A DNA stretch of 64,000 nucleotides from Vicinamibacteria bacterium (lineage in GTDB: Bacteria; Acidobacteriota; Vicinamibacteria; Fen-336; JAGNNV01). The position numbers were made by a program, and so were the translations under genes. Location of the stretch: assembly GCA_031392925.1 (NCBI GenBank), contig JANMVV010000158.1, positions 8,760 to 72,759 on the forward strand, written 5' to 3'. Shown here in pieces: positions 10,179 to 58,352 of the stretch. Positions within the stretch are counted from its first letter, which is position 1; each line of letters opens with the position of its first letter. Under the pieces are notes generated by a model that made no database searches, was not told where the DNA came from, and was given only the letters and a program-made list of their open reading frames with translations.

Positions 10179-10226
10179 ACGCGGGCGGATACGGTATCCT
10201 CTGCCCCCGTTGAGCATCCCTTCGCC

Positions 10227-12470: not shown

Positions 12471-12534
12471 CCCCCCAATGTTGTCGCGCCATCGCGGTGC
12501 TTGATATCCTCGCCCGCTTGAGTTCAAGATACCT

Positions 12535-18781: not shown

Positions 18782-20740
18782 CTAAGGCCGGGGGTAGGGA
18801 CGCGGGCTGACGTGAAGAGCCAGGCGAATCAGCGCGTGCTCGGTCTGGCTCGAGTCGGGGCTCTGGGTCACGGTCACGCCTCGAGACTCCACGCGCACGC
18901 TGTAGACGAACGAGTCGTAGTACATGACGTGCGGCCCTGGGACGACCCGGAGTCTGACCAATCCCAGGCCGGCCACCAGCGCGCGCTCCGCAGCGGCCCC
19001 GGCCTCGATCTCGATGTCGTCGCCCGTGCGCATCCCGACGAGGGTGACGTCGATATAGTCCACCGGCTCGTTCGCGCGGAGCAGGACTTCGGTCTTCCCG
19101 CCCCGCTTCACCCGGAAGCCCTCCGCCGGCTCGCCGTCCTTCAGAAACATGCCCGGGATGGTCTCGCGCCCGAACGTGCCGTCGTCCGGGAAATAGAGCC
19201 AATAGCCGGCGCGCGAGCCCGGGCGATGGAGCGGCGGATCGCCTTCCACATCGTCGTAGGGCTGCTTCTTGCGCCACGGGTCGGTGCAGAACGAGAGGTC
19301 GTTCAGCATGGCGCGCTCGGCCCGGAGGTAGGTGAGCGGGCCGCCGGGAGTGCTCGCGAGGCGCGAGGGCCGCAGTGAATGCTCGACGGGCTGAAGCCAG
19401 GCCGGGACAAGGAACAAGGCACTCACGGCGACGCCGAGGACGGTCACCAGGAACTCGCGCCCTTTGGGAACGAAGAACATGGCGAGGGGGAGGACGGCGG
19501 TGAAGTAGCGGTTGCCCACCGTTCCCCCGCCGCCGTACCAGTTCGAAGGACCAGGAATAATGCGAATGCTCACGAAATAGAAGAGGAGAAGGCCGGCAAT
19601 CGCGAACCATCCCTCCTTCTCCCGAGGACCGAGCAGAAGGAAGAAAGCCAGGGCGAGAAACGCGGGTGCGAAGTAGGGCAGCATCCCCCCATAACGGCCC
19701 ACCCAGAAGTCGACGAGATTGGCCAGGAACATCTCCTGCAGTTCTACCGGCGACTGCGCGATTCCCGCCCCGCGCGTTTGCGCCTCGCCTTCTCGGAGCG
19801 GCCCGAGCTTCATGGTGGTCATCCACTCGCCGCTGTTTCCGAAGGTCACGTCCTTCAGTTCCGCGCGCTCGAAGGGGAACTCCGACCCGAACGTCTTTCG
19901 TTCGCCCCCCTGGTAGTTCCACTCCCCCGTGACCAGGGTATTCACGCCGAAGAGGAGCGCCGCGCAGCCGATCATCACCGCGCCGCGACGCGCCGTCTCC
20001 CTCACTTGCCTCACCGCGGGCAGGCCCGCCTCGAAGAGGGGCGCCAGGCCAAGCGGCGCCGCCATCAGCAGGTGCGTGGGCTTGGTGTATCCGGCGATGC
20101 CGAAGAGAACCGCGGACAGCATCGGGCGATTCCCTCGCCAGGCGGAGAGGGCGAGGGCGACGAGGGCAAGGTTCATCAGCTCCGGCTGGATCCAGAAGAT
20201 GTAGATGGGGACGATGGTGGCGAGGACCAGGGTGGCCGAGGCGAACATCGCGACCATGTCGGAGGCGCGCCGCCGTAGTTCCATGAAGACACAGAGCCAG
20301 GCCACCATGAGGCACACAGCATTGAAGATCAGAAAGCCGCGGCTCCCGAAGAGGGCGACGAAGGGCGACGCCGCGACCGGGTAGGTCATGGCCTTGCCGA
20401 AGTAGAGCCGCTTATCGTCCTTCGACCCTCGCTTGAGCCACGGAGCCGACGGGTGGAGCTTGAAACCACCCGATGCCCGTTTCAAGAAGATGCCGCTCGG
20501 GCCTTCCGGATACTCACGTTTGATCCGGGCCAGGTCCGTCGCGGTGTACTCGAGGTCGAAGTCCCCGACCAGGCTCCAGGCCATGGAGTAGTAAGTAGCG
20601 CCGTCCGAGAAGAAGCGCCCTTCAGAGAGCTTCGCGGGATCGCTCTTGAAGCAAAGGCCGAGCAGTACGAGCGCGGCCAGGGACATAAGAGCCCTGGGAA
20701 GCCAGCGCACGAACGCGTTCATGCGGCGCCTCGGGTGCAC
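18782..20740 (-). CDS. Large polytopic membrane protein (GT-C-like glycosyltransferase/DUF-type)
   Basis: It is 652 aa with ~12 TM helices and a large soluble C-terminal domain. It is adjacent to, and probably co-transcribed with, the MATE gene (7-bp gap). Confidence 0.55.
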   Translation of the reverse strand: MHPRRRMNAFVRWLPRALMSLAALVLLGLCFKSDPAKLSEGRFFSDGATYYSMAWSLVGDFDLEYTATDLARIKREYPEGPSGIFLKRASGGFKLHPSAPWLKRGSKDDKRLYFGKAMTYPVAASPFVALFGSRGFLIFNAVCLMVAWLCVFMELRRRASDMVAMFASATLVLATIVPIYIFWIQPELMNLALVALALSAWRGNRPMLSAVLFGIAGYTKPTHLLMAAPLGLAPLFEAGLPAVRQVRETARRGAVMIGCAALLFGVNTLVTGEWNYQGGERKTFGSEFPFERAELKDVTFGNSGEWMTTMKLGPLREGEAQTRGAGIAQSPVELQEMFLANLVDFWVGRYGGMLPYFAPAFLALAFFLLLGPREKEGWFAIAGLLLFYFVSIRIIPGPSNWYGGGGTVGNRYFTAVLPLAMFFVPKGREFLVTVLGVAVSALFLVPAWLQPVEHSLRPSRLASTPGGPLTYLRAERAMLNDLSFCTDPWRKKQPYDDVEGDPPLHRPGSRAGYWLYFPDDGTFGRETIPGMFLKDGEPAEGFRVKRGGKTEVLLRANEPVDYIDVTLVGMRTGDDIEIEAGAAAERALVAGLGLVRLRVVPGPHVMYYDSFVYSVRVESRGVTVTQSPDSSQTEHALIRLALHVSPRPYPRP

Positions 20741-20747
20741 CCGACCG

Positions 20748-22154
20748 TCACTCGACGGAATCGAGCGGAGGCAGCAGATCTGATTCGATGACCCGGAGAC
20801 TTTGCCACGCGCCCTTACGATAGCGGACGAACATAACCACGCCGAGGACGACCACGTACAGGGTCGCGAAGACCCAGGCGACGTAGACGCCCTGGCCTCC
20901 GTGGACGCAGAACCACCAGGTCGGAACCAGCATCACCACCCACGAAATCACCACGGTCGCGGTCATGGGAAAGCGCGTGTCTCCCGCTCCCTTAAGGCCT
21001 CCCGCGCACACGACGTTCACCATGTCGAAGATCGAGTAGAAGGCCACGAAACGGAGGAGGACGGTGGCGATGCGGCTGATCTCGACGAAGGTCGCGGGAT
21101 CGGCCCCCGCGGCGTAGGGCGCAAGCAGCAATCCGGGCACGAGCACATACGCGGCGCTGCACACGATCATGTACACCTGGGAAATCACGAGCCCCGACTT
21201 GATGGCGCGATCGGCGAGCGCGGGCCGATGCATCCCGAGGTAGCGCGCCACCAGGGTCGAGACGCCGTAGCCGAGGCCCACCGCGGGCAGGAAGACGATG
21301 GTGTTCAGGTTGAAGGCGATGGAGGTGGCGGCGAGCGGGGCCACCCCGATATTCCCGATGACGAACATGAACAGGGTGAAAGCAAGGATCTCGAGCGACG
21401 GCTGCAGGCCCGAGGGTACGCCAAGCTTGAGCAGACGCATGAAGATCCGCGGCTGGAATCGGAAGTCCAGGAAGCCATGGGCCACTCGCTCCGGCGCGTT
21501 CATGATCAGGGCGAGATACACGAGCGCGCTCATGGCCTGGCTCAGGATCGTGGAATAAGCGGCCCCGACCGTGCCCAGGGCGGGGAACCCCAGCTTGCCG
21601 AAGATGAGGACCCAGTCGAGGAGCATGTTCAGGATCGTCGCGAAAATGGTGACGCCGAGGACGACCTTGGTTCGCCCGCGCCCGGCGAAGTAGGTGGAGA
21701 AGGCGACCATCACCACGACCGGGAAAGTGCCGCGCAGCATGATGCGCGCATAGGCGATCTCATGCACCCGCATCGACTGCGCGTGGCCCACGGCATCGAA
21801 CAGAGGGGTTACGAAGTACGAAAGGAGCCAGCCGCACACTCCGGCGAAGGCGGCGAAGTAGGCGGCCTGGTACACCACCGCCCCGATGCGATCCTCGCGC
21901 TTCGCCCCAACGTACTGCGAAACGAAGGGCGTCGCGTATTCCGCGGTGCCATTGAAGAGCCCGGTAAGCACGTAGATGGCGAAGCCGCCGGTGGTGACGC
22001 CGGCCACCGCCTCCGCCGACCACCAGGTGAGGAAGATGCGGTTCACGAAGTGCTGGATGGTCACCGACATCATCGACAGGATGAGCGGCAAACCGAGGGC
22101 GAGGACCTCCCGCCCGCCCGCATCCCCCTCCCACAACCGGCCCAGTCGCTTCAT
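20748..22154 (-). CDS. MATE family efflux/polysaccharide-type transporter
   Basis: It has 12 TM helices and the MATE N-terminal pattern (EVLALGLPLILSMMSVTIQHFVNRIFL). Confidence 0.8.
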   Translation of the reverse strand: MKRLGRLWEGDAGGREVLALGLPLILSMMSVTIQHFVNRIFLTWWSAEAVAGVTTGGFAIYVLTGLFNGTAEYATPFVSQYVGAKREDRIGAVVYQAAYFAAFAGVCGWLLSYFVTPLFDAVGHAQSMRVHEIAYARIMLRGTFPVVVMVAFSTYFAGRGRTKVVLGVTIFATILNMLLDWVLIFGKLGFPALGTVGAAYSTILSQAMSALVYLALIMNAPERVAHGFLDFRFQPRIFMRLLKLGVPSGLQPSLEILAFTLFMFVIGNIGVAPLAATSIAFNLNTIVFLPAVGLGYGVSTLVARYLGMHRPALADRAIKSGLVISQVYMIVCSAAYVLVPGLLLAPYAAGADPATFVEISRIATVLLRFVAFYSIFDMVNVVCAGGLKGAGDTRFPMTATVVISWVVMLVPTWWFCVHGGQGVYVAWVFATLYVVVLGVVMFVRYRKGAWQSLRVIESDLLPPLDSVE

Positions 22155-27425: not shown

Positions 27426-28211
27426 TCAATTTTCCTCGTTCTTCAGTCCAAAAGGTCGGGGCTTGATGATCTGGGGAGGTTTCTGCCGGCTCATGTCGCC
27501 CCCGGCGCTGCGCCAGATCGCGATCCAGGTCGCGGCCACCGCGCTCACCGAGCGCGAATAGGCGATCGACGACACCGCGAACACCGGGCTGCGGAAGTCG
27601 ATCTCGGTGGCCGGGACCACCCGACCGTCCTCCTGCCCCTCTTCGCGGAGACGTGCGGCCTGGGCCGGGGTCTTCGCAATCACGCGGTCGAGAAAGCCGG
27701 GAAGCTCATCGAGAGCCAGGCGCATCGAGTCCGGCTCGACAAGCACCACCGGGATCTTGTCGAGGTTGGCGGTGGTGAAGAGATAGAACTCGCGCCGGAT
27801 GGCCTTCGCCTTCGCGTCGCTCCCGATGCCAAGGCCAACGCTCGGGTCGGCAAGGTCGACGGCCAGGCGGTAGGTGGCGCCGAGGGCGATCACCGCTCCG
27901 CGAAAGTCGTGACCGCCAAGCGCCTTCACGCGTTCCGTGAACTCCAGGGCCAGCGCCTGCTTCGTGGGCGCATCCAGCCTGCCCTTGGGAAGATCGGAAT
28001 AGACGAGGGACAGGGCCGGCATACTGGAAGTCCGGGCGTCCGCGAAGATCTCCGCTTCGTTCGCGAGAAAGATTTCGGCCAGCGACTTCGGAACGATCTT
28101 GAGCGCGTCCCTGGCGATCCGCTGGGACAGGTCGGCCGGCCACGCCTCGGCCCGGGGCGAGCCGAGAAGAAGCGCGGAGAGCGCCAGAACAAACAAGCGG
28201 CTTCGGATCAA
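27426..28211 (-). CDS. Hypothetical secreted protein
   Basis: It has a signal peptide (MIRSRLFVLALSALLLGSPRAEA). It is 4 nt from both neighbours. Confidence 0.5.
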   Translation of the reverse strand: MIRSRLFVLALSALLLGSPRAEAWPADLSQRIARDALKIVPKSLAEIFLANEAEIFADARTSSMPALSLVYSDLPKGRLDAPTKQALALEFTERVKALGGHDFRGAVIALGATYRLAVDLADPSVGLGIGSDAKAKAIRREFYLFTTANLDKIPVVLVEPDSMRLALDELPGFLDRVIAKTPAQAARLREEGQEDGRVVPATEIDFRSPVFAVSSIAYSRSVSAVAATWIAIWRSAGGDMSRQKPPQIIKPRPFGLKNEEN

Positions 28212-28215
28212 GCGA

Positions 28216-28839
28216 TCAATCGATCCGCACGGGCTTCGCCTTGAGCGCCACTTTTCCGTCCTGAAGGGCCACCCGGAAATCCACGGCCACCGCGTCCTTC
28301 TCCTCGAGCAAGCGGGTGCGCTGCTGGGCGATGAGCTTCTTGAAGGACTCGAACTTCACCTCCGACTCGCCCACCGAGGCGCGCGCCGCCTTGAACTGCT
28401 CGTACAGGACCTTCACTCCCTGCTCGTCTTCGCGCAGGGTGCTGAGACGCACTTCCACTCGGGCGCCGGCCCCGGGGTCCACGGCCCTCGACCCAGCCAG
28501 GAGCGGCGGCGCCGCCGCGGTGGTGGCGGAGGCTTCGGCCGCGTCGCGCACGTGCTTGAGCTGGACGGAGGAGAGCGGCCGCCCTTCCTCGATGGCGCGG
28601 AGCTTGCGGTTCCACAAGTCGGAAAGCGTGTTGTACTTCGCGGTGAGGGACTGGAATCTGAACCGCTCGATATTGTTCCGAATCTCCACACCCACGTAAC
28701 GGCGCACCAGCCGATCCAGCCGCTGCTTGGCCTCGAACGGAGCCTTGCGCTCCTGCCCCGAGAAGAACCGCTCCCATTCCTTCTGGAGCTTGAAGATCCC
28801 CTGGTCGATCTTCTCGAGATCTTCCTCTAGCGCGCTCAT
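28216..28839 (-). CDS. Hypothetical cytoplasmic protein (charged, helical)
   Basis: It has good GC3 bias and no recognisable motifs. Confidence 0.5.
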   Translation of the reverse strand: MSALEEDLEKIDQGIFKLQKEWERFFSGQERKAPFEAKQRLDRLVRRYVGVEIRNNIERFRFQSLTAKYNTLSDLWNRKLRAIEEGRPLSSVQLKHVRDAAEASATTAAAPPLLAGSRAVDPGAGARVEVRLSTLREDEQGVKVLYEQFKAARASVGESEVKFESFKKLIAQQRTRLLEEKDAVAVDFRVALQDGKVALKAKPVRID

Positions 28840-28882
28840 CGATAGAACCCCGACCCGATTCCCGAGATCAAGGCCATGGCCA

Positions 28883-29284
28883 TCACTCCTTCACGAAGAA
28901 GGACATGAGAGGAAGCCACAGCTCGTGGCCGTAGGGAGCCTTCCGGCCCGCCACCAGGATCTCGCTGCCCGGGCGCGCGGCCACGAGCGAAGCCACGTCG
29001 CGCAATAGGGACGCCTGCTCGGTCCGGAATTCGGCGCGATAGCGCGTGATCGAGCCTTCCTTGAAGGTGCTGAAGGATGCGGCCTGCCCGGAAAGCCGCT
29101 TCGCCCTCGTCACCACGTCATCCTCGGAGTCGTCGAACACCACCGAAATGGCGAAAGGCTTCTGCCGGCGGCCCGGGTAGAGGATCTCCACCAGTTCGTC
29201 GGACATGCCTTCGATGTTCTCTTCGACCTTCGGCACCACAGGGGGCAGACGGTCGGCATACGTCGGAACGCGGTCCCGGCTCAT
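28883..29284 (-). CDS. Hypothetical protein (133 aa)
   Basis: It has coding bias and lies in the co-directional array. Confidence 0.45.
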   Translation of the reverse strand: MSRDRVPTYADRLPPVVPKVEENIEGMSDELVEILYPGRRQKPFAISVVFDDSEDDVVTRAKRLSGQAASFSTFKEGSITRYRAEFRTEQASLLRDVASLVAARPGSEILVAGRKAPYGHELWLPLMSFFVKE

Positions 29285-29330: not shown

Positions 29331-30605
29331 CTATTTCGAGGCTCCGTCCAGAGCCTCGATGGTCGCGGTGGAGGCCGGCCGTTCGGTCTTGAGGCGCGCG
29401 GCGATCTGCTCGTTGGCGGCCCAGACCCGGAGGATGTTCTCGCCCACCAGCTTCTTCACGTCCGCGTCGGTCCAGCCCCGGCGCAGAAGCTCGGCCACGA
29501 GATGGGGATACTTCGAAACATCCTCCAGGCCGTCGGGCAACTCGTCGGTGCCGTCGTAGTCGCCTCCGAGGCCAATGTGGTCGACCCCGGCGATCCGGCG
29601 GATGTGCTCGATGTGGTTGGCGACCTGCTCGAGGGTCGCGTTCTTCGTCTTGAACTGCGCGGTGACTTCGGCGGTGATCCGCTTCATCGTGGCCTCATCG
29701 GTGACTCCCTCGAGCTTCGCCTTCAGGGCGTCGCGACGCTCGCGGCCCTTGGTGGCGACGTCCTGGGAGATGAAGCCGGGAACGAAGGTCACCATCACCA
29801 CACCTCCATTCGACGCCAGCTGGCGCAGGATCGCGTCGGGGACATTGCGCGGCACGTCGCACAGGGCGCGGGCCGAGCTGTGCGAGAAGATCACCGGCGA
29901 GGCGCTGACCCGAATCGCGTCCTCCATGGTCTTTGGGGAGACGTGAGAGAGATCGATCATCATGCCGAGACGGTTCATCTCGCGAACCACCTCCTCGCCG
30001 AACTTCGTGAGCCCCCCGTGCGTCGCGGGGCCCGCGGCCGCGTCGGCCCAGTCCAGAGTCACGTTGTGGGTGAGGGTCAGGTAGCGCGCGCCCAGAGCGT
30101 AGAAGGCGCGCAGGGCGCCGAGGGAGTTCTCGATGGCGTGACCGCCCTCCATCCCGAGCATCGACGCGACCTTGCCCCGGCGGAAGATGGGGAGGACCTG
30201 GGACGCGTTGAGCGCGAGTTCGAGACGGTCGGGATATTTCTGGATGACCCGGCGGGCGATGTCGATCTGTTCGAGCTGCACCTTCGCATAGCCGAGCTTC
30301 TTCGTTTCCTCCTCGCCCGGAATGTAAACGGACCAGAACTGCCCCCCCATCATCCCCTGGGCCATTCTTGGAAGATCGGTCTGGCCGGGCGCGGTCTTGC
30401 GAAGGTCGTAGGCCTCGACGTCCTTGGGACTCTCCTTGGAGATCCGAATGGCCCAGGGAACGTCATTGTGGCCATCGATCAGGGGCGTGACCTTGAGGAT
30501 GGCCCGGGCGCGCGTCAGGAAGGGATCGGCGGCGGTCTTTGAAGCGGTCGGCACGGCGGGAGCCCCCTGAAGAAGCGTCATCACGGCGAAGGCGGTTGTG
30601 ATCAT
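29331..30605 (-). CDS. Membrane dipeptidase, peptidase family M19
   Basis: It has a signal peptide and the M19 motifs (LIDGHNDVPWAIR, HVSP...). Confidence 0.85.
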   Translation of the reverse strand: MITTAFAVMTLLQGAPAVPTASKTAADPFLTRARAILKVTPLIDGHNDVPWAIRISKESPKDVEAYDLRKTAPGQTDLPRMAQGMMGGQFWSVYIPGEEETKKLGYAKVQLEQIDIARRVIQKYPDRLELALNASQVLPIFRRGKVASMLGMEGGHAIENSLGALRAFYALGARYLTLTHNVTLDWADAAAGPATHGGLTKFGEEVVREMNRLGMMIDLSHVSPKTMEDAIRVSASPVIFSHSSARALCDVPRNVPDAILRQLASNGGVVMVTFVPGFISQDVATKGRERRDALKAKLEGVTDEATMKRITAEVTAQFKTKNATLEQVANHIEHIRRIAGVDHIGLGGDYDGTDELPDGLEDVSKYPHLVAELLRRGWTDADVKKLVGENILRVWAANEQIAARLKTERPASTATIEALDGASK

Positions 30606-30674
30606 GTGTCCTCGTGTCGGCCGGAAGGGGCAGAGCCCGTTTCGAGGGCTCGGCGCGGCCTGAAGGCTCGAAGC

Positions 30675-32801
30675 TTAGAGCTTGAAGTCGATTTGAATGG
30701 CGACCCAGGCCCGGCCGGGTTTGCCGTTGAGGGTGGCCGGCTTGTACTTGCGCCGTTTCACGTTGTCGAGCGCGGCCTGATTGAGGCCCGAGGTGCCGGC
30801 AACACCGCGGATGAGGCGGACTTCGGCCACGTTTCCCTGCTCGTCCACCAGCGCCGAGACCACCACGCTTCCGGTGATCCTCTGCGCACGGGCTATGGGC
30901 GGATACTCGATCCTGAACTGCGAGACGAGAATCGGGGCCACCACCACCGGGTCGGAGAGATCGAGCAGTGCCGGACCTCCGGCGGGCGCCGGGGCCGCGG
31001 CGGCTCCCGCGGGCGGCGGGACTGCAGCCGTGGGTGGGGGCGAGGCGGGGGAAGCGGCCACGGGAGCGGGCGTGCTCGCCGGAGCGATGGACGGGGATGC
31101 GGCGGCGGCCTCGAATGCTTTCGCGACCTCCGCGGCCCTCGCGGCCTCGGCGGCGCGAGTTTCCTCCGCCTTCTTCCTCTCCTCTTCGATCTTCAGACGC
31201 TCGGCCTGCAGACGGGCCTCCTGATCGGCCTGGGCCTTCTTCCTCGCTTCGTCCTGGGCCTTTTGCAGTTCCGCCGGATCGACGGCCCGGCCTTTCGCCT
31301 TGGCCTGAGCTTCGATCGTCTTCTTCGCTTCGTCCGCCGCCTTCTGTTCGGCCGCGACCTTTTCAGCCTCGAGCGCCGCGAGGCGCGACTCGAGCTCGCG
31401 AACCCGAGCGAGGGCCGCCGTCTCCGCCGCGTTCATGGTGGGCGCGGTGGCAGGGCCGGGAGTCGGAGCGGCGGAGCGCGTGAGGAAATAGCCCGCGACC
31501 GCCGCAACCACGACCACCCCGATGACAACCGGCGCCACGGGGAAGCCCTTCTTCTCGGCCAGGATGCTCTGGAAGAGCTGGTCTTCAGCCGGGCTCGGAG
31601 GCGCCGGGCTCGCCGCCGGCGCCGGAACGCGGCTGATGCGCCCCGAGTCGTGCTTGACCGGTTCAAACTTGGCGGCTTCCGCCTTGAAGGCCTCGGGCCG
31701 GATCGCGTCCATCCGAAGCGTGCTGTCGAGGGCGGCCCTGGGCGGAGCGGCGGGCGTCGACGCCGGCCCGCCGTGGACCAGGCCGGAGGCCGAGACCACC
31801 GTTGGCGCGGCCGCGGCGGGGGGAGCGCTCATCTCGGCGAGATACGGCCGGTAGTCCGCGTTCTTTTCGGCCTTGATCCGGGCCGCGTCGTCGTCTCCCT
31901 CGTCACGGAAAAGAGTGTGCATGAAGAACGCAAGATTGAACGTGGTCGGCGAATAGTCGCCGGAGAAGAGCAGAGTGTCGACCGCCTTCTTGAACGCGGT
32001 CGCATCCTTGAACCTCCGGCCCGGATCCTCGGCCAGGGCCTGGCCGAGGAGCGCCGCCAGCGCTTTGGGGATGGGCGCCCCGTCCGTTCCGGGCGACTGG
32101 ATCCTCGCGGCTTCGATGCTCTTGAGCGTCGATTCCGTCCGGGGCAGGGCCACCCCGGTGAGCATCTCGAAGAGTTGCGCGCCGAGACTGAAGATATCGG
32201 CCCTGATGTCGAGGGGCGCCGTCCCTTCCAGTTCAGGGGCGAGGAACCTGGCCTCGCGGACCCCCACGCAATTCGCGTTGCGCAGGACGCGAGGCGGCAG
32301 TCCGAAACCGCGGACACTGACTTCGCCGTCATGGGACACGTGGATGAATTCCGGAACCAGGAAGCCGTGGGTCTGCTTCTTACCCTGGGCCGCCTCGAGA
32401 GCGGCCGCGGCCTTGCTCGCGATCAGGAGGGCGTGGTCGGCGGCGAAAGGGTGGCCCTCGGCCTGCGACCGCTCCATGAGCGCGCCCACCGATCGGCCGT
32501 CGAACAGTTCATATGCCGAAAACGCCGTCTTGTCGAGGCGTCCGGCCTCGAAGCCGCGGACCACCTGCGCGTGCTGGACCGCCAGTCCGTTTTTCAGCCC
32601 GTCGGCCAGAGCCTGGGCGACCTCGGGGGCCAGGAGTTCGGAGCGAAACAGCTGGACATGCCGCTCGTATCCCGAGGTCCCCAGTTGTATGGCGCGAAAG
32701 AACGAGCCAGCGCTGGTTCGCGCGTCCTCGGACTGCAGGACGAACCGACCGTATCGCTCTTTGGTCTCCACGTGGCGCCTCGCTTCACGGACAGCAAACA
32801 C
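30675..32801 (-). CDS. Membrane pseudokinase (degenerate Hanks-type kinase fold) - TolA-like coiled coil - TonB C-terminal domain fusion
   Basis: The kinase-like domain retains APE/subdomain IX-XI (FLAPELEGTAPLDIRADIFSLGAQLFEMLTG) but has lost catalytic residues. HRD has become HGF, DFG has become GFG, the beta3 Lys is replaced by Gln (HVQLF), and the Gly-loop is degenerate. One TM helix follows, then a Lys/Ala/Glu coiled coil (EEERKKAEETRAAEAAR...), then a TonB_C domain (EYPPIARAQRITGSVVVSALVDEQGNVAEVRLIRG...LDNVKRRKYKPA...). Confidence 0.8.
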   Translation of the reverse strand: MFAVREARRHVETKERYGRFVLQSEDARTSAGSFFRAIQLGTSGYERHVQLFRSELLAPEVAQALADGLKNGLAVQHAQVVRGFEAGRLDKTAFSAYELFDGRSVGALMERSQAEGHPFAADHALLIASKAAAALEAAQGKKQTHGFLVPEFIHVSHDGEVSVRGFGLPPRVLRNANCVGVREARFLAPELEGTAPLDIRADIFSLGAQLFEMLTGVALPRTESTLKSIEAARIQSPGTDGAPIPKALAALLGQALAEDPGRRFKDATAFKKAVDTLLFSGDYSPTTFNLAFFMHTLFRDEGDDDAARIKAEKNADYRPYLAEMSAPPAAAAPTVVSASGLVHGGPASTPAAPPRAALDSTLRMDAIRPEAFKAEAAKFEPVKHDSGRISRVPAPAASPAPPSPAEDQLFQSILAEKKGFPVAPVVIGVVVVAAVAGYFLTRSAAPTPGPATAPTMNAAETAALARVRELESRLAALEAEKVAAEQKAADEAKKTIEAQAKAKGRAVDPAELQKAQDEARKKAQADQEARLQAERLKIEEERKKAEETRAAEAARAAEVAKAFEAAAASPSIAPASTPAPVAASPASPPPTAAVPPPAGAAAAPAPAGGPALLDLSDPVVVAPILVSQFRIEYPPIARAQRITGSVVVSALVDEQGNVAEVRLIRGVAGTSGLNQAALDNVKRRKYKPATLNGKPGRAWVAIQIDFKL

Positions 32802-32887
32802 CGGGGCTTCCTTCCTCTTGAAGTCGGATCGCCCACCGCGGCTGTCGTCCCGAGAACGCTACACGCCGAGCGACCCCGAGGTCAATG

Positions 32888-33760
32888 TCAGCGCTCCGAC
32901 GAACCTGCCTTGAGAACCACGCGTCCGTGCAGGGGCGAGGTAAACACCGCCCCCTCGTCACGGTCGATCGAGACGCAGGTCCAGCCGTCGACGGCATCGC
33001 CCACCGAGATGACGCGGACCTCGTCGCCCACGCGAATGGAGACGCGGCTCTTCCCTTCCGAGACCAGGAACGCGACCAGGGCAAACGGCGGCGCGGGCGC
33101 CGGCTCGACCGCGGGGATCGTCCCGGCCGGATCGAGAGGGGCAGCGGAAGGCGTCAGAGGGCGGGGCGGGGCGAGCCTTCGCGGCGTCTTCGAGACCTCA
33201 GGCAAAGGTGCAGCCTCCGCCGGAGGCGGATCCGAACCCCCGGAGCAGGCCGGGGGCGCGGGGATGCTGCCGCCCGGAAGCGATTCAAACACTCCGGTGT
33301 TGGCGGAGATGGCCCAGTTCTCGCCCTTTTCTCGAATGGAGACACCGCGCAGGAAGGCTCCGCGGCCCGGATCCCCCAGCCTCTTTAGAAGCTCCACTAC
33401 TGAGCGGTGCGCCCCGGTGGCCTCCACCGTGGCGCCTCCCTCGGAACCGCCGGTCACGCTCAGGGCGAAGGGCGATAGCGAAAGGCCGGCGGTCGCGGCG
33501 ACCGCGCGCTGACGCAGCGACGCCGGATCCGAGGAAGCCCGGCAGACGGTTCCGAGAGCGCTGCCGATGCGGGCGCGAAGGGCCTTTGTCTCGCCCACCC
33601 CGCGCTCGGCCTTGACCCGGTCGCGCCGGATCTTGCTCTGCTGGCTCAGTCGAGTCTCCTGCTCGGCCCGCATGGGAGCGACGAGACCGAACCACACGAT
33701 CGCCGCCAGGAGCCACGGCGCGATCGCTTGGACCTCCCGGCTCGTCCGGCGTTTCATCAT
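32888..33760 (-). CDS. PilO-like + PilP-like fusion (T4P/T2SS inner-membrane alignment-subcomplex-like protein)
   Basis: It starts at MMKRR (Met249 of the long track ORF), and this ATG overlaps the upstream TGA as ATGA. It has an N-terminal TM, a periplasmic ferredoxin-like region, a Pro-rich linker, and a C-terminal beta domain (VAFLVSEGKSRVSIRVGDEVRVISVGDAV...) resembling the PilP/GspC pilot domain. The first 248 codons of the track ORF are out-of-frame overlap and not coding. Confidence 0.5.
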   Translation of the reverse strand: MMKRRTSREVQAIAPWLLAAIVWFGLVAPMRAEQETRLSQQSKIRRDRVKAERGVGETKALRARIGSALGTVCRASSDPASLRQRAVAATAGLSLSPFALSVTGGSEGGATVEATGAHRSVVELLKRLGDPGRGAFLRGVSIREKGENWAISANTGVFESLPGGSIPAPPACSGGSDPPPAEAAPLPEVSKTPRRLAPPRPLTPSAAPLDPAGTIPAVEPAPAPPFALVAFLVSEGKSRVSIRVGDEVRVISVGDAVDGWTCVSIDRDEGAVFTSPLHGRVVLKAGSSER

Positions 33761-34290
33761 CGCGCGATCCCCTTCGGACGATGAAGGGCCGCGACGGTCG
33801 CGCGGACCAGGCCGGGGCGGCTCTCTGACCCGGGACGGATATCGCTGAAGCGCGGCGCCTTCGAAAGGGCGCTCAGGAAGCGGTCGTAGGCCTCGGGCCC
33901 GCGGGCGACCACAGCCAGTTCCACGCGAGCGGTCGCATCCGGCTGGTACTCGATCCTGTAACTCATCACCGAGACGCCCTGGGGAAGAATCTCCCGCAGA
34001 TCGGCGATGATCCGCTCGGGCGACGACTCCACGCTGGCGGCCGCGACGAGGAGGTCCGGACTCTTGAGCAGCATCCGCTTTTCGCTCTCGGCCGACTGAG
34101 CGAGCGCCGCCGCCTCGGCCATCGCCTTGCGCATCGATCGATCCGCCGAAGAGGCGGCCATTCCCTCGCTGGCCGCGATGGCGAGCGCATACGCGAGGGC
34201 CACGAAGCCCGCGATCTGCACGCCTCGCCAGGCGCCTTGCGCTTCGTCGGCGAGGGCGCGCGAGCCGAATTCGGGGAGGCCGAGGCTCAC
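33757..34290 (-). CDS. PilN/PilO/GspM-like bitopic membrane protein
   Basis: It has a short cytoplasmic N-terminus, one TM (GVQIAGFVALAYALAIAASEG), a coiled coil and a ferredoxin-like periplasmic domain. Its GTG start overlaps the upstream stop as GTGA. Confidence 0.45.
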   Translation of the reverse strand: MSLGLPEFGSRALADEAQGAWRGVQIAGFVALAYALAIAASEGMAASSADRSMRKAMAEAAALAQSAESEKRMLLKSPDLLVAAASVESSPERIIADLREILPQGVSVMSYRIEYQPDATARVELAVVARGPEAYDRFLSALSKAPRFSDIRPGSESRPGLVRATVAALHRPKGIAR

Positions 34291-35135
34291 TTCGAAGCAC
34301 TCTCGTGGAAGAGGGACAGGAACGGAAACCGCTGAGGATCGGCGGCGCCGCGAAGGGCCGGTTCATCGAACGCGGTCTGGATCGTGACATCGCTGGCCTT
34401 GCCCCGCAGGGAGGAGGCGTCCTCGCCGAGCACGCGGATTTCCGAGACTTCGCTCGCCGCCCGCAGGGCTTCGTCGATCGAGCGCTGACCCCGGTCGTCT
34501 CCAAGGACGAGGAGACGGAGGTGGATCGCGTCCATGACCCCGGAAGCGTCGCGGACCGCGATGGCGCAGGCCGAGTCGCCGAAGATGAGATCCACCGTGC
34601 CCGGTCTCGGCGGGAGGCCGCGCAGGGCGGCGGAGAGCGAGGACGTGACCCGGGGGCGGCCGAATCCGAGCGAGGTCATCACCCTCTCGCCTTCCTCGAT
34701 CGTGGTTTTGAGCACGGCCTGGGCCAGCACCGCGCCGCGGTGGACCGAGGACGAGCGTTCCGACCGGACCTCGGACAGCGCGATCGGAAAAGGCAGGAGG
34801 GGGGCCAGCCGGAACCGGACCAGATCGGCTTCCTCCACCTCCGGAGCCTGCGTCTTCTTCATGGCGGAGAGGTCGACGATCGAAGGAAAGGAGGCGCCCA
34901 GGGGCAGGAGGAGCGTGGCGTCACCGGAAGGGGCCTTGAGTTCGCGGGAGAGGCGAGAGACCGCCTCCCTCGAATCGGCCAGGACATCGGAAAAGAGGTC
35001 GCCCCCGCTGGCGCGCGACGCGAACCGCTCCGAACCGAAACGTTCCAGGCGCGGGCCCGAGAAACCCTCCCGATAGACCGCGAGGGCGGCGCTGCGCGTG
35101 TCGACAAAGACGAGCGCCTTCTCGGAGAACCACAT
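34287..35135 (-). CDS. PilM/GspL-cytoplasmic-domain-like (actin-like ATPase fold) protein
   Basis: It has an N-terminal KALVFVDTRSAALAVYREGFSGPRLERFGSERF pattern matching the first beta-hairpin of PilM. It is soluble with no TM. Confidence 0.4.
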   Translation of the reverse strand: MWFSEKALVFVDTRSAALAVYREGFSGPRLERFGSERFASRASGGDLFSDVLADSREAVSRLSRELKAPSGDATLLLPLGASFPSIVDLSAMKKTQAPEVEEADLVRFRLAPLLPFPIALSEVRSERSSSVHRGAVLAQAVLKTTIEEGERVMTSLGFGRPRVTSSLSAALRGLPPRPGTVDLIFGDSACAIAVRDASGVMDAIHLRLLVLGDDRGQRSIDEALRAASEVSEIRVLGEDASSLRGKASDVTIQTAFDEPALRGAADPQRFPFLSLFHESASK

Positions 35136-35269
35136 GGGGACTCAATCTTAGGGTGTCTTTGCATCATATGAACCCCTTGACCCTTTCGCTAAGATCCGGG
35201 CAGTTGATTCCAATACGTCCGTGAACCCTCCGGGCGGTTCTCCCAGGCCCGGCTCAGAGTGGAGGTCCC

Positions 35270-37369
35270 ATGAAGGCTTTCGAGAGCACGCAGATCCGCA
35301 ACGTGGCGCTGGTCGGTCACGGAGGCTGCGGGAAGACCTCGATCGTGGCCGACGCTCTGTTCACCATGGGGGTGACGCCGAGGCTCGGCCACGTCACCGA
35401 TGGCACCGCGGCCACCGACTTCGACCCCGAGGAGATCGAGCGAAAGATTTCGATCCAGACTTCGGTCGCGAGCGGTGACTGGGCGGACACCCGCATCAAC
35501 CTCATCGACACGCCCGGATACGCGAACTTCGTGGGCGAGGCGCTCTCCGCTCTGCGGGCCGCCGATGCCGCCATCGAAGTGGTCGACGCGGTCGCGGGGC
35601 CGGAGGTGCAGACCCATCGCCTTTTTCACGCGGCCGAGGACATGGAGCTTCCGCGCGTCTTCGTGATCAATCGGATGGACCGCGAGAACGCCTCATTCGG
35701 CCACACCGTGGAGGCCCTGCGGAAGGCCTTCGGACGCACGGTCACTCCCATCGAGTTCCCCATCGGGGAAGGAGCCGCGTTCAAGGGTGTCGTCGACCTG
35801 GTGAACTCCAAGGCCTGGGCGTTTCTGGACGACGAGAGCGGCACCTTCAGCGAGTTCAAGATGACCAAGGATCTCGAGGAGGCGACGGTGCGCTTCCGCC
35901 AGGAGCTCGTGGAGGTGGTGGCCGAGACCGATGAGGCGCTCATGGCCGAGTTCTTCGACAAGGGGACGCTGTCGCCGGAAGCACTCGGGGAAGGACTGAA
36001 GAAGGCGTGCCAGCGCGGCCAGATCTTCCCCACCCTTCCCTTCTCTTCGATCAAGAACATCGGCGCGGCCCAGCTGCTGAACGCGATTGTCGCCTACCTG
36101 CCGAGCCCCACCGACCGGCCGGAGGTGAAGGGCAAGGGCCCCGCGGGCGAAGAGTCGAGGCCCTGCTCGGTGAGCGCGCCCGCCTCGGCCTTCGTGTTCA
36201 AGACCATCTCCGATCCGCACGCCGGACGCCTCTCCTTCGTGCGCGTGGTCTCGGGAAAGTTCAATCACGACCTCACCATCACGGTTTTGAGCCGCGACGT
36301 CCAGGAGCGCGTGGGGGCCTTGTCCCACGTGGTCGGGAAGACCCTCGTCCCCGCCACCGAACTGATCGCCGGCGACATTGGCGTGATCGCAAAACTCAAG
36401 GAGGCCCACACTGGAGACACGCTCTCCGACAAGGCCCGCCCGATCACCTTCCCGCCCATCGACTGGCCGGAAACCCTCACCACCTTCGCGATCGCGCCGA
36501 AGACGCGGGGCGACGACGACAAGATCGGCATCGCGATGAGCCGCCTCATCGAAGAAGACCCGGTCCTGAAACTCGAGCATGCCACCGAGACCCATGAGCT
36601 GCTCCTGCGCGGCCTCGGCCAGCTCCACATCGAGACCGTCGTCTCCAAGCTCGCCAAGCGCTACAAGGTGGAGGTGAACCTCAAGCGCCCCACCATCCCC
36701 TATCGCGAGACCATCAAGGCTTCGGCCGACGGCCACGGGCGCCACAAGAAGCAGACCGGCGGTCACGGCCAGTTCGCGGACTGCAAGATCACCATGCGTC
36801 CCCTGGCGCGCGGGGAAGACTTCAAGTACATCAACGGCACCTTCGGCGGCTCCATTCCCAGGAACTTCCTGCCCGCCATCGAGAAGGGCATCCAGGAAAG
36901 CCGCAAGCGCGGCGTCATCGCGGGCTGTCCCATGGTGGACTTCGAAGTGGAGGTCACCGACGGCCAGTTTCATGACGTCGACTCCTCGGAAATGGCCTTC
37001 AAGATCGCGGGGTCGCTGGCCTTCAAAGACGCGGTCGCGAAGTGCCGGCCCACCCTGCTCGAGCCCATGATGGCGGTGGAGGTGGTGATGCCCGAGGAGT
37101 TCGCGGGGGCGGTGATGGGCGACCTGTCCAGCCGTCGCGGCCGGCCCCAGGGCATGGAGCCTTTCCGCGATCTTCAGAAGATCAAGGCGGAGGTCCCGCT
37201 GGCCGAACTCGAGACCTTCGATCAGGACCTCACCTCTCTTACCGGCGGCCGCGGTTCCTTTCACATGGAGTTGATCCGGTACGATGAGGTGCCGGGCCAC
37301 CTTCTCGATAAGGTGGCGGCCGAGATCCGGGCTCACCGACCCGGAGACCATCACAAGGAAGAGGAATAG
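35270..37369 (+). CDS. Elongation factor G paralog (EF-G-like) with degenerate GTPase switch II
   Basis: It has the full five-domain EF-G length and retains the domain IV tip ([14 protein letters not shown]). G1 is GHGGCGKTS rather than [10 protein letters not shown]3 is DTPGY rather than DTPGH, so the catalytic His is replaced by Tyr. G4 is NRMD. Confidence 0.8.
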   Translation: MKAFESTQIRNVALVGHGGCGKTSIVADALFTMGVTPRLGHVTDGTAATDFDPEEIERKISIQTSVASGDWADTRINLIDTPGYANFVGEALSALRAADAAIEVVDAVAGPEVQTHRLFHAAEDMELPRVFVINRMDRENASFGHTVEALRKAFGRTVTPIEFPIGEGAAFKGVVDLVNSKAWAFLDDESGTFSEFKMTKDLEEATVRFRQELVEVVAETDEALMAEFFDKGTLSPEALGEGLKKACQRGQIFPTLPFSSIKNIGAAQLLNAIVAYLPSPTDRPEVKGKGPAGEESRPCSVSAPASAFVFKTISDPHAGRLSFVRVVSGKFNHDLTITVLSRDVQERVGALSHVVGKTLVPATELIAGDIGVIAKLKEAHTGDTLSDKARPITFPPIDWPETLTTFAIAPKTRGDDDKIGIAMSRLIEEDPVLKLEHATETHELLLRGLGQLHIETVVSKLAKRYKVEVNLKRPTIPYRETIKASADGHGRHKKQTGGHGQFADCKITMRPLARGEDFKYINGTFGGSIPRNFLPAIEKGIQESRKRGVIAGCPMVDFEVEVTDGQFHDVDSSEMAFKIAGSLAFKDAVAKCRPTLLEPMMAVEVVMPEEFAGAVMGDLSSRRGRPQGMEPFRDLQKIKAEVPLAELETFDQDLTSLTGGRGSFHMELIRYDEVPGHLLDKVAAEIRAHRPGDHHKEEE

Positions 37370-38664
37370 TGCTGAAGAAGATCGCGTCGATTGTCGCCCT
37401 CCTGTCCCTTGTAGGGCCCTCCGTGTGGGCTCAGACCGCGAGTCCCACGCCGGGTCCCGCCTCCACGCCCTCGCCGGGCCCCGCCGCTCCGGGGGCGAAG
37501 GCCGTCGATGCGAAGCTCGCCGGCCAGGATGTGCCGGTACCGGCCCGGAAGAAGTACGTCGCTCCCGAGTACCCGGCGAGCGCCGCGGCGGAAGGAATCC
37601 GCGGGATCGTCATTCTCGATGTCCTGATCGCGGAGGACGGCCGAGTGGAGAGCACCCGGGTGACCCGGTCCATCCCGGGCCTCGATGAAGCGGCGATGAA
37701 CGCGGTGAGGCTCTGGGAATACGAGCCCACGAAGCTTACGGGCAAACCCGTGAAGGTCCGGCTGTCGCAGTCGATCACCTTCGCCTTGAAGCTGCCCGAA
37801 CTGCAGCGCGCTCCCGGCATTCCGGAACTGAAGAGCGGGGGCGCGCCGCCCTTGCCTCCGGGCCTCGCCACCGCGGAGACGGCCTCGGTCATGATCGCTC
37901 TCGGTCCCCAGGGGGAAGTCCAGGAAGCGGCGGTGGTCGAGGGCAATCCTTCGGCGGGCGAAGCCCTGCTGCGCGCGGTGAAGGCCTGGCGCTTCACGGT
38001 CTCGGAAGGCGCTCCGCCCCTCGTGTTCACGGTGCGTGCGGACTGGGCGCCCGGACCTCCGCCCACCCTCGCCCTCAAGGCCCTGGACCCGCGAAGCCCC
38101 AACCCGGCCGCCGCATCCCCGGCCCCCCGGGCGTCCCCGTTGCCCGCGCCCTCGTCGTCGCCCACCGCGGCGAGCACGTCCACGGCTGCGCCTTCTGCCG
38201 CGCCCAAGGCCCCGGTGGCAACGTCCCCCGTGCCCGCGGTGACCGCGGTCCCTGCCGCACCCAGCGTTCCCGTGGCTCCCGCCCCCGTGGCTCCCACGGT
38301 GGATACCGACGTGATCCCCGCACGTCAGGAGCCTCCGGCGAAGGAGGAGGGGGTCTCAGCGGTGGCCGAAGTGAGTCTTGGCAACAACATCCCGGACCTG
38401 GTGAAGGGCCGGCGGCCAGTGTGGCCGCCCATGGCGCGCCTCGGCAACGTCATGGGCGAGGTGGTGGTGCGATTCTCCGTGGACCTCGCGGGCCGGGTCA
38501 CGGTTCATTCCGCCGAAGGGCCGGACCTGCTCAAGGGCGCGGCCGAGCAGGCGGTGGGCACCTGGGTCTTCAGGCGAACCGCTATCGACCGGGTGCACCT
38601 CATCGCAACCTTCAAGTACGGGGCCGAGCGGTCGATCGCGAAAGTCGAGCGGGTGGCGCAGTAG
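37369..38664 (+). CDS. Secreted protein with two to three tandem TonB C-terminal-like domains
   Basis: It has a signal peptide and a Pro/Ala-rich linker. The TonB_C-like patterns are at ~aa 60-140 (KKYVAPEYPASAAAEGIRGIVILDVLIAEDGRV...LDEAAMNAVRLWEYEP), at ~175-235 (weaker), and at ~330-420. Its GTG start overlaps the EF-G-like TAG by 1 nt. Confidence 0.65.
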   Translation: MLKKIASIVALLSLVGPSVWAQTASPTPGPASTPSPGPAAPGAKAVDAKLAGQDVPVPARKKYVAPEYPASAAAEGIRGIVILDVLIAEDGRVESTRVTRSIPGLDEAAMNAVRLWEYEPTKLTGKPVKVRLSQSITFALKLPELQRAPGIPELKSGGAPPLPPGLATAETASVMIALGPQGEVQEAAVVEGNPSAGEALLRAVKAWRFTVSEGAPPLVFTVRADWAPGPPPTLALKALDPRSPNPAAASPAPRASPLPAPSSSPTAASTSTAAPSAAPKAPVATSPVPAVTAVPAAPSVPVAPAPVAPTVDTDVIPARQEPPAKEEGVSAVAEVSLGNNIPDLVKGRRPVWPPMARLGNVMGEVVVRFSVDLAGRVTVHSAEGPDLLKGAAEQAVGTWVFRRTAIDRVHLIATFKYGAERSIAKVERVAQ

Positions 38665-58317: not shown

Positions 58318-58352
58318 GATTGTTTCTCAGGCGTCCTTAAGGGGGGAACCAA

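Follow-up and report, generated by a model that had tools for sequence, protein, structure and literature searches.

A conserved Acidobacteriota protein family joining a predicted pseudokinase to a TonB_C domain, a candidate trans-envelope scaffold

The stretch of DNA analysed here, 64,000 nucleotides from a Vicinamibacteria bacterium (contig JANMVV010000158.1, positions 8,760 to 72,759, hereafter the window), carries a gene at 30675-32801 on the minus strand. Its 708-aa product combines a Hanks-type kinase fold, predicted to be catalytically dead, with a single transmembrane (TM) helix, a helical stalk and a TonB_C domain. The protein is bitopic in the inner membrane, with its N-terminal 330 residues in the cytoplasm. 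As judged from the literature searched, pseudokinase-TonB_C proteins constitute an undescribed family that is conserved across the Acidobacteriota. On balance, and with a modest preference over other explanations, the protein appears to serve as a non-catalytic trans-envelope scaffold, tether or hub. Bacterial pseudokinases have barely been explored. This family is well delimited and strongly conserved in a major soil phylum, and its reach from the cytoplasm to the outer-membrane side offers a clue to its function, as does its place, in one class, where the secretin gene would close a pilMNOP-like operon. The gene and its parts are arranged as follows.

30675-32801, minus strand: the whole gene, encoding the pseudokinase, TM helix, helical stalk and TonB_C protein of 708 aa (open reading frame (ORF), Pfam and NCBIfam)
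31968-32768, minus strand: cytoplasmic Hanks-type kinase fold with a predicted dead active site, residues 12-278 (alignments, AlphaFold2 (AF2), Foldseek, and the ratio of non-synonymous to synonymous substitution rates (dN/dS))
31863-31967, minus strand: invariant post-kinase motif LLFSGDYSPTTFNLAFFMHTLFRD and the helix that it starts, residues 279-313, a family signature (alignment, AF2)
31539-31811, minus strand: disordered Ala/Pro/Ser-rich cytoplasmic linker, residues 331-421 (predicted local distance difference test score (pLDDT) <50, composition)
31476-31538, minus strand: single TM helix without His or SxxxH, residues 422-442 (hydropathy, AF2)
31101-31430, minus strand: periplasmic A/E/K-rich helical stalk resembling TolA domain II, residues 458-567 (AF2, composition)
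30972-31097, minus strand: Pro/Ala-rich flexible spacer, residues 569-610 (pLDDT <50; A 30%, P 28%)
30678-30971, minus strand: TonB_C domain with the YP motif kept (EYPPIA), residues 611-708 (Pfam, TIGR01352, pLDDT >90)

The kinase-like domain and its conservation

The N-terminal domain is recognisable as a kinase both by sequence and by predicted structure. Its score for the Pfam family PK_Tyr_Ser-Thr (26.6 bits) lies above the gathering score of 23.1, its score for Pkinase (31.6 bits) lies 0.1 bit under the 31.7 set for that family, and NCBIfam gives partial matches of the 708-aa protein to PknB-type kinases. A phmmer search of the PDB returns PknE (8e-10), and StkP and PknB at about 1e-8. 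An AF2 model of the whole protein was built on 27 homologues. In this model the kinase-like region (residues 12-330) reaches a pLDDT above 90, and its top PDB match in Foldseek is the kinase domain of M. tuberculosis PknB (E=5.9e-17, target TM-score 0.67-0.75).

The alignments indicate that the residues on which phosphotransfer depends are missing from this fold. The β3 Lys of the VAVK/VAIK motif is replaced by Q50 in HMMER and MAFFT alignments alike. In the family alignment, which consists of the query and its 120 best homologues (121 sequences), S is the commonest residue in this column (51 sequences), followed by T (31), Q (23) and E (4), and Lys is not among these commonest residues. The HRD motif reads H145-G146-F147 and HRDLKPxN as a whole reads HGFLVPEF (H145 to F152), with V149 in place of the catalytic-loop Lys and F152 in place of the Asn. 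H145 and G146 are invariant in the family alignment, while position 147 is L or F, with Asp in 2 of the 121 sequences. DFG is represented by G165-F166-G167; position 165 is G in 94 sequences and A in 19, and Asp is absent from the residues listed for this column. The αC Glu position falls on G68 or L69, depending on the alignment; the neighbouring D/E67 is conserved in 116 of 121 sequences and its Lys partner is absent. Across the 121 sequences the cleft (N-lobe and catalytic loop) has no invariant Lys or Asp, and neither this alignment nor 24 distant relatives reveal a conserved Ser or Thr in the activation segment. The APE motif (P189, E190) is retained and invariant, as are the Asp of subdomain IX (D202) and the Arg of subdomain XI (R263).

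An alignment made in MAFFT with PknB and the 24 distant relatives gives the same mapping of the catalytic residues as the PDB alignments. The probe and reference sequences for PknB and E. coli TonB are illustrative only; the catalytic mapping rests on the PDB alignments. A preliminary description of this DNA had proposed a kinase fold with subdomains VIII-XI intact, in which Gln replaces the VAIK Lys, HRDLKPxN has become HGFLVPEF and DFG has become GFG. The fold is borne out by Pfam, phmmer, AF2 and the Foldseek match to PknB, and the three substitutions by both the PDB and the MAFFT alignments, neither of which places an intact Lys/Asp/Asp set elsewhere in the domain.

A degenerate cleft may still belong to an atypical active enzyme, either with relocated residues, as in WNK, or with another chemistry, such as SelO-type AMPylation or SidJ-type glutamylation. 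The intact fold and the strong purifying selection described below would suit such an enzyme. So would the residues kept near the cleft, namely R36 in the β2 region and H145, both invariant, together with the conserved D/E67, and the family consensus preserves a GLGxEY remnant of the Gly-rich loop. However, this explanation is highly improbable. The Asp positions that provide the metal ligand and the base are replaced family-wide, the two sequences with Asp at position 147 aside, and the N-lobe and catalytic loop offer no invariant Lys or Asp instead. In addition, according to the available text of a 2025 review, pseudokinases in which all three motifs are degraded almost never bind ATP (PMC12599244).

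The conservation of the domain argues that it is maintained in its dead form. Among the segments of the gene, for which dN/dS was computed against five orthologues, the pseudokinase has the lowest values (0.07-0.12), which implies strong purifying selection on the dead domain. The stalk gives 0.06-0.17, and the cytoplasmic linker at residues 331-421 gives 0.23-0.64, the highest or near-highest of the segments; overall, dN/dS peaks in the linkers. The gene has a GC content at third codon positions (GC3) of 0.82 and a codon usage typical of the window. A pseudogene or decaying kinase is ruled out by the intact frame, the family-wide invariant motifs and the low dN/dS. The catalytic losses are also kept in all 24 distant relatives aligned with MAFFT, which include members from Thermoanaerobaculia, Holophagae and Sulfidibacter. 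This distribution points to losses that are ancient and maintained.

A database search yielded 652 significant homologues of the 708-aa protein. Almost all of the 120 best have a length of 600-750 aa, and all but two of the 120 combine PK_Tyr_Ser-Thr, Pkinase and TonB_C; the named organisms are Vicinamibacteria or Acidobacteria. A 99% identical protein (P0001) occurs in a Logan assembly, and the best loci encode proteins of 81-87% identity. Where a source names one of the 120 homologues, the name is "TonB family protein" or "serine/threonine-protein kinase". Both labels are misleading, the latter because it ignores the missing catalytic residues and the former because it ignores the missing motif for coupling to ExbBD (see below). 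An exhaustive HMMER search with residues 1-330 found 129 cluster representatives (50% identity) at E<=1e-30. In most of them the match is N-terminal and the length 600-750 aa; truncated fragments and a few long multi-kinase proteins depart from this pattern.

A search for the motif TTFNLAFF in 185,579 species genomes identified 247 genomes with a relative. Their taxonomy was read from the 80 loci shown, in which the named organisms belong to Vicinamibacteria, Thermoanaerobaculia, Holophagae/Holophagales and unclassified Acidobacteriota and include the cultured Sulfidibacter corallicola M133. Two metagenome-assembled genomes (MAGs) among the 80 loci are oddly labelled, as Ignavibacteriota and Deltaproteobacteria. 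The architecture had at first been called unusual. This holds relative to the literature searched, but with 247 species genomes and about 129 clusters at 50% identity the architecture is not rare.

The kinase fold is known to be kept for non-catalytic roles elsewhere. Examples are EssB/YukC, a membrane scaffold of the type VIIb secretion system, and the pseudokinase domain of mycobacterial MviN, both of which resemble the present protein in this respect. The available text of the 2025 review presents EssB/YukC as the clear instance of a pseudokinase whose non-catalytic role is critical (PMC12599244). The same text names seven annotated bacterial pseudokinase families (ActPs1-3, GLW, CP1, DYD and DLHK), of which the GLW family is proteobacterial and carries GLW in place of HRD (PMC12599244). 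The family described here differs from it in that HRD is replaced by HG[FL]. TonB and Acidobacteria are unmentioned in the text of the review, and its available part describes no link to TonB_C (PMC12599244). Likewise, full-text searches of a limited literature collection found no description of the family or of a kinase and TonB_C architecture.

The best-conserved stretch of the whole family lies outside the kinase domain. It is the sequence PTTFNLAFFMH, which follows directly after it as part of the family motif (L)LFSGD(F/Y)xPTTFNLAFFMHxLFR and was found in 24 of the 24 distant relatives aligned. In the 121-sequence alignment, P285 through F293 are invariant, as are H295 and L297. The stretch stands at the start of a helix (residues 287-313) that is modelled with a pLDDT of about 90. 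Candidate roles for the motif are packing against the kinase lobes, contact with the membrane and binding of a partner.

The membrane helix, stalk and TonB_C domain

Beyond the linker, the protein crosses the membrane once. The only hydropathy segment, at residues 422-442, has a mean Kyte-Doolittle hydropathy of 2.5 (maximum 2.54), and AF2 models a helix at residues 423-442 (pLDDT 63-73); exactly one hydrophobic segment is present in 117 of 121 homologues. The stalk that follows is modelled as two helices, at residues 458-503 and 509-567, with a pLDDT of about 80. The same model shows disorder (pLDDT below 50) on both sides of these helical parts, at residues 331-422 in the linker and 569-608 in the Pro/Ala spacer. 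Residues 451-575 consist of 33% A, 16% E and 10% K, and the roughly 110 residues of the stalk would span about 16-17 nm if extended. The TonB_C domain is canonical, with a Pfam match (PF03544) at residues 631-708 (E=2e-18, 67.1 bits against a gathering score of 24.6) and an NCBIfam tonB_Cterm match (TIGR01352) of 55.8 bits against a cut-off of 27.1. The NCBIfam AgmX/PglI C-terminal domain matches the 708-aa protein at E=0.085. The single TM helix, the E/K/A-rich stalk like that of TolA and the TonB_C domain had all been put forward in the preliminary description, and hydropathy, the composition of the modelled helices and the two domain scores, both well above their cut-offs, agree with it on each of them.

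These parts raise the possibility that the protein is a true energy-transducing paralogue of TonB or TolA. Its ExbBD or TolQR would be encoded elsewhere, the pseudokinase would be a regulatory add-on, and the protein would open TonB-dependent transporters or drive a Tol-Pal-like constriction of the outer membrane. Like TonB of the E. coli type and TolA, it has a C-terminus of the TonB_C family with the YP motif, a Pro/Ala-rich spacer and an inner-membrane anchor reaching outward. It also shares with TolA a long A/E/K-rich helix as in TolA domain II, and databases name many of its relatives after TonB.

TonB and TolA couple to ExbBD and TolQR via an N-terminal TM helix carrying SxxxH. In the present protein, however, the TM helix lies about 420 residues into the sequence, behind the cytoplasmic part. 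His or SxxxH was found in the TM helix and the four residues on either side of it in 0 of 121 homologues, the SHLS form of TolA included, and no residue of the TM region is invariant in the 121-sequence alignment. Genes for ExbB, ExbD, TolQ, TolR, TolB or Pal (Pfam MotA_ExbB and ExbD) are absent from the annotated flanks of the loci, so that the gene, unlike those of TonB and TolA, is not found beside exbBD or tolQR-tolB-pal. Only the helical domain of TolA has a counterpart, and the Pfam and NCBIfam scans gave no match to TolA domain III. Because the TM helix lacks SxxxH and no exbBD or tolQR genes lie nearby, the protein is probably not an energised TonB, and a role as an energy-transducing paralogue is very unlikely.

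A trans-envelope protein with a TonB_C-like end but a structural function is known from M. xanthus. GltG, a component of the Agl-Glt gliding machinery, contains FHA domains in its cytoplasmic part, followed by a TM helix, disordered periplasmic segments and a C-terminal TonB_C-like domain, and both GltG and GltJ are structural links of a trans-envelope machine (PMC11761067). GltG is the closest precedent in layout. Like GltG and GltJ, the present protein is bitopic in the inner membrane, with a cytoplasmic domain of a phospho-signalling type (FHA in GltG), one TM helix, a long periplasmic part and a TonB_C-like C-terminus. The differences are that its cytoplasmic module is a dead kinase fold and not FHA or ZnR-GYF, that no sequence relationship to these proteins was detected beyond TonB_C, and that no genes for a motor such as the TolQR-like AglRQS, the partner of GltG and GltJ, lie beside the pseudokinase-TonB_C gene.

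On the favoured reading as a scaffold, the conserved dead kinase domain and the invariant helix would form a cytoplasmic binding platform. The stalk would bridge the periplasm and set the TonB_C domain deep within it, where this domain may dock by β-strand addition onto a partner at the outer membrane or the peptidoglycan layer. Coupling would be independent of phosphorylation, as the preliminary description had suggested, and would probably take place without proton motive force through ExbBD or TolQR. The earlier suggestion that the pseudokinase is used as a scaffold is strengthened by the family-wide substitutions, the lowest dN/dS and the TM helix without the TonB/TolA motif. If the scaffold reading is true, the family would add a case in which a kinase fold has been turned into a structural hub of a trans-envelope machine, and one in which TonB_C is used outside energy transduction, as in GltG. 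It would also provide an entry point to the envelope organisation of the Acidobacteriota.

Gene neighbourhoods and possible partners

In the window, the pseudokinase-TonB_C gene is preceded by three genes on the same strand, whose products resemble the inner-membrane platform proteins PilM, PilN, PilO and PilP.

34287-35135, minus strand: PilM-like (actin/FtsA-like) cytoplasmic protein, 282 aa (profile match to PilM)
33757-34290, minus strand: PilN-like bitopic protein, 177 aa, with a 4-nt overlap with the next gene (weak PilN matches)
32888-33760, minus strand: fused PilO-like and PilP-like protein, 290 aa (AF2 model)

A profile of 16 orthologues of the PilM-like protein matches P. aeruginosa PilM (5eox) at E=4.2e-7, and in the database search with this protein the weakest match bears the source name PilM. 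For the PilN-like protein, a profile of 16 orthologues matches only M. xanthus PilN in the PDB (E=0.074). The AF2 model of the 290-aa protein shows a TM helix with a long helix, a ferredoxin-like domain, a Pro-rich linker and a small β domain. Elsewhere in Vicinamibacteria this third gene is split into PilO-like (about 165 aa) and PilP-like (about 155 aa) genes. The upstream genes match those of pilMNOPQ and of the type II secretion system (GspL, GspM and the HR domain of GspC) in order, size, topology and fold. None of the three proteins passes a Pfam threshold, and the PilM-like and PilO/P-like proteins gave no Pfam match at all; in this divergence they differ from the pilMNOPQ proteins. Five relatives of the PilM-like protein (P0277 and P0279-P0282) are 456-481 aa long, which is consistent with PilM-PilN fusions, the layout of GspL.

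The three upstream genes overlap by 4 nt at their junctions and are separated from the pseudokinase-TonB_C gene by 86 nt, a gap without a terminator-like site. A scan of 30400-35400 found no promoter-like sites, and terminator-like sites at chance level only, a result that does not speak for or against co-transcription. In about 25 Vicinamibacteria loci the M-N-O-P-like genes stand in this order ahead of the pseudokinase-TonB_C gene, again with 4-nt overlaps between the cassette genes and with a gap of 3-90 nt before the pseudokinase-TonB_C gene. The link is reciprocal, as both divergent PilM-like proteins that were looked up (on three contigs) lead to the cassette and then to the pseudokinase-TonB_C gene. 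From this arrangement the M-N-O-P-like genes and the pseudokinase-TonB_C gene are predicted to form one operon in Vicinamibacteria, this window included.

The secretin is encoded by the last of the five genes of the canonical pilMNOPQ operon. Here the fifth position, where pilQ normally lies, is taken by the pseudokinase-TonB_C gene. No secretin, pilin, PilB/PilT ATPase or PilC gene was found among the window genes scanned or in the annotated flanks of the loci, in a further departure from pilMNOPQ. Within the scaffold reading, the protein of Vicinamibacteria would probably be the outward-reaching arm of a PilM/N/O/P-like inner-membrane platform, and the likely contact of its TonB_C domain would be the PilP-like HR domain or an outer-membrane protein. 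The post-kinase sequence PTTFNLAFFMH was considered as a PilM-binding peptide resembling the N-terminus of PilN. This candidate was set aside, as the PilN-like proteins have a conserved cytoplasmic peptide of their own at the N-terminus, PDFSxRP, and the motif is also invariant in clades without the cassette.

In divergent orientation to the PilM-like cassette lies another gene pair. It consists of an elongation factor G (EF-G) paralogue at 35270-37369 on the plus strand (EF-G2), additional to the regular fusA at 56218-58326 in the str operon, and a gene at 37369-38664 on the plus strand for a 431-aa signal-peptide protein with TonB_C domains (107 bits). The stop codon of EF-G2 overlaps the GTG start of the second gene, and the paralogue is predicted from this overlap to be translationally coupled to the periplasmic TonB_C protein. 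The pair adjoins the cassette in this orientation in 17-24 Vicinamibacteria loci.

Outside Vicinamibacteria, the gene has other neighbours.

Thermoanaerobaculia and relatives, about 35 loci: RuvX-MltG immediately upstream, LptD-like nearby, CsgG/LpoB-like lipoprotein downstream
Low-GC clade, 5 loci: BamD and then a LysM and FlgT_C protein upstream, stand-alone PASTA protein nearby
Sulfidibacter and a Holophagae MAG: MurF-Alr and Ddl, or LapB-like, upstream; HIT and TPR-SLT lytic transglycosylase downstream

Every one of these contexts belongs to envelope biogenesis, and two independent contexts involve parts that normally surround the type IV pilus secretin. Loci of the low-GC Acidobacteriota-like clade have the LysM and FlgT_C gene (6377-7621 in L022 and 6565-7863 in L038, both on the plus strand) just upstream of the pseudokinase-TonB_C gene, with BamD before it, and a stand-alone protein with three PASTA domains is encoded a few genes further upstream. 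The combination of LysM and FlgT_C is the domain signature reported for the secretin-associated TsaP (bioRxiv 10.1101/2020.05.29.123786).

A more specific form of the scaffold reading can be proposed tentatively and must be regarded as doubtful. The protein would be the outward-reaching subunit of an undescribed, secretin-less trans-envelope complex of Vicinamibacteria, built on a diverged PilM/N/O/P platform, and the family as a whole would be a phylum-wide envelope hub of the Acidobacteriota. In such a complex, the PilP-like HR domain may have TonB_C for a partner instead of the secretin N0 domain, or TonB_C may grip a TonB-box-like strand of an outer-membrane protein, while the dead kinase domain would organise the cytoplasmic face. 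As an envelope hub, the family would have been recruited class by class to a pilus-like platform, a TsaP-like ring or peptidoglycan remodelling enzymes.

The neighbourhoods can also be read as those of a regulator of cell-wall or peptidoglycan synthesis that acts independently of the PilMNOP-like cassette. The dead kinase would then be a dock or phospho-substrate for an active Hanks kinase or an FHA protein, and the TonB_C domain would bind, or report on, peptidoglycan or the outer membrane. The mycobacterial module of the MviN pseudokinase and FhaA provides a model. Peptidoglycan genes adjoin the gene in most clades, with MltG in the Thermoanaerobaculia-type loci and with MurF-Alr, Ddl and the TPR-SLT transglycosylase in Sulfidibacter and a Holophagae MAG. 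The PASTA protein, BamD and the LysM protein are near neighbours in the low-GC clade. In addition, the closest kinases by sequence and fold, PknB, StkP and PknE, are cell-wall regulators. They share with the present protein a cytoplasmic kinase domain, a juxtamembrane linker, a single TM helix, an extracytoplasmic domain and cell-wall gene neighbourhoods. They differ in that the phosphotransfer residues are lost here, the PTTFNLAFFMH helix is added after the kinase domain, and the extracytoplasmic part is a helical stalk with TonB_C and not PASTA or a β-propeller.

Nevertheless, such a regulator is unlikely. The activation segment lacks a conserved Ser or Thr, and no kinase, phosphatase or FHA gene is conserved alongside; in the window, a scan with illustrative probe sequences found this gene as the only kinase-like one. 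The pair ruvX-mltG is a housekeeping pair, so its adjacency may be positional, and the tight Vicinamibacteria operon with PilM/N/O/P-like genes would be left unexplained.

Several points weigh against the scaffold reading and the pilus-like platform tied to it. The Pfam match of the PilN-like protein (E=0.012) is below threshold, the PilO-like and PilP-like proteins gave no sequence-profile match, and their assignments are tentative, as they depend on one AF2 model with a mean pLDDT of 74.9. The sole link of the pseudokinase-TonB_C protein to the PilMNOP-like proteins is its predicted operon membership, and in four loci (L014, L026, L034 and L047) genes are inserted between the PilP-like and pseudokinase-TonB_C genes. 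The cassette was seen only in Vicinamibacteria and the family is far wider, so the core function of the family cannot depend on it. Finally, the dead kinase domain may keep nucleotide binding, and ExbBD or TolQR may act in trans.

Start codon and other genes of the window

The ORF at 30675-32801 starts with GTG, and a Shine-Dalgarno-like run, GAGGAAGGAAG, lies about 8 nt 5' of the GTG at 32801. The orthologues begin at query residue 11, with METKERY where the query has VETKERY, and the true start may therefore lie 30 nt downstream. The region 32771-32801 on the minus strand is thus ambiguous, with a good Shine-Dalgarno-like run set against the starts of the orthologues.

Among the remaining genes, a 716-aa ORF at 18782-20932 on the minus strand has a coding-like GC3 and no Pfam match at E<=1e-4. 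Three consecutive hypothetical genes at 27426-29284 on the minus strand, downstream of an M19 dipeptidase gene, encode proteins of 133, 207 and 261 aa without Pfam matches; their order is conserved only in the closest Vicinamibacteria subclade. The genes at 10179-12470 and 12505-14784, both on the plus strand, are tandem paralogues for proteins of about 760 aa, each with a membrane domain like that of the major facilitator superfamily and a spermine/spermidine-synthase-like domain.

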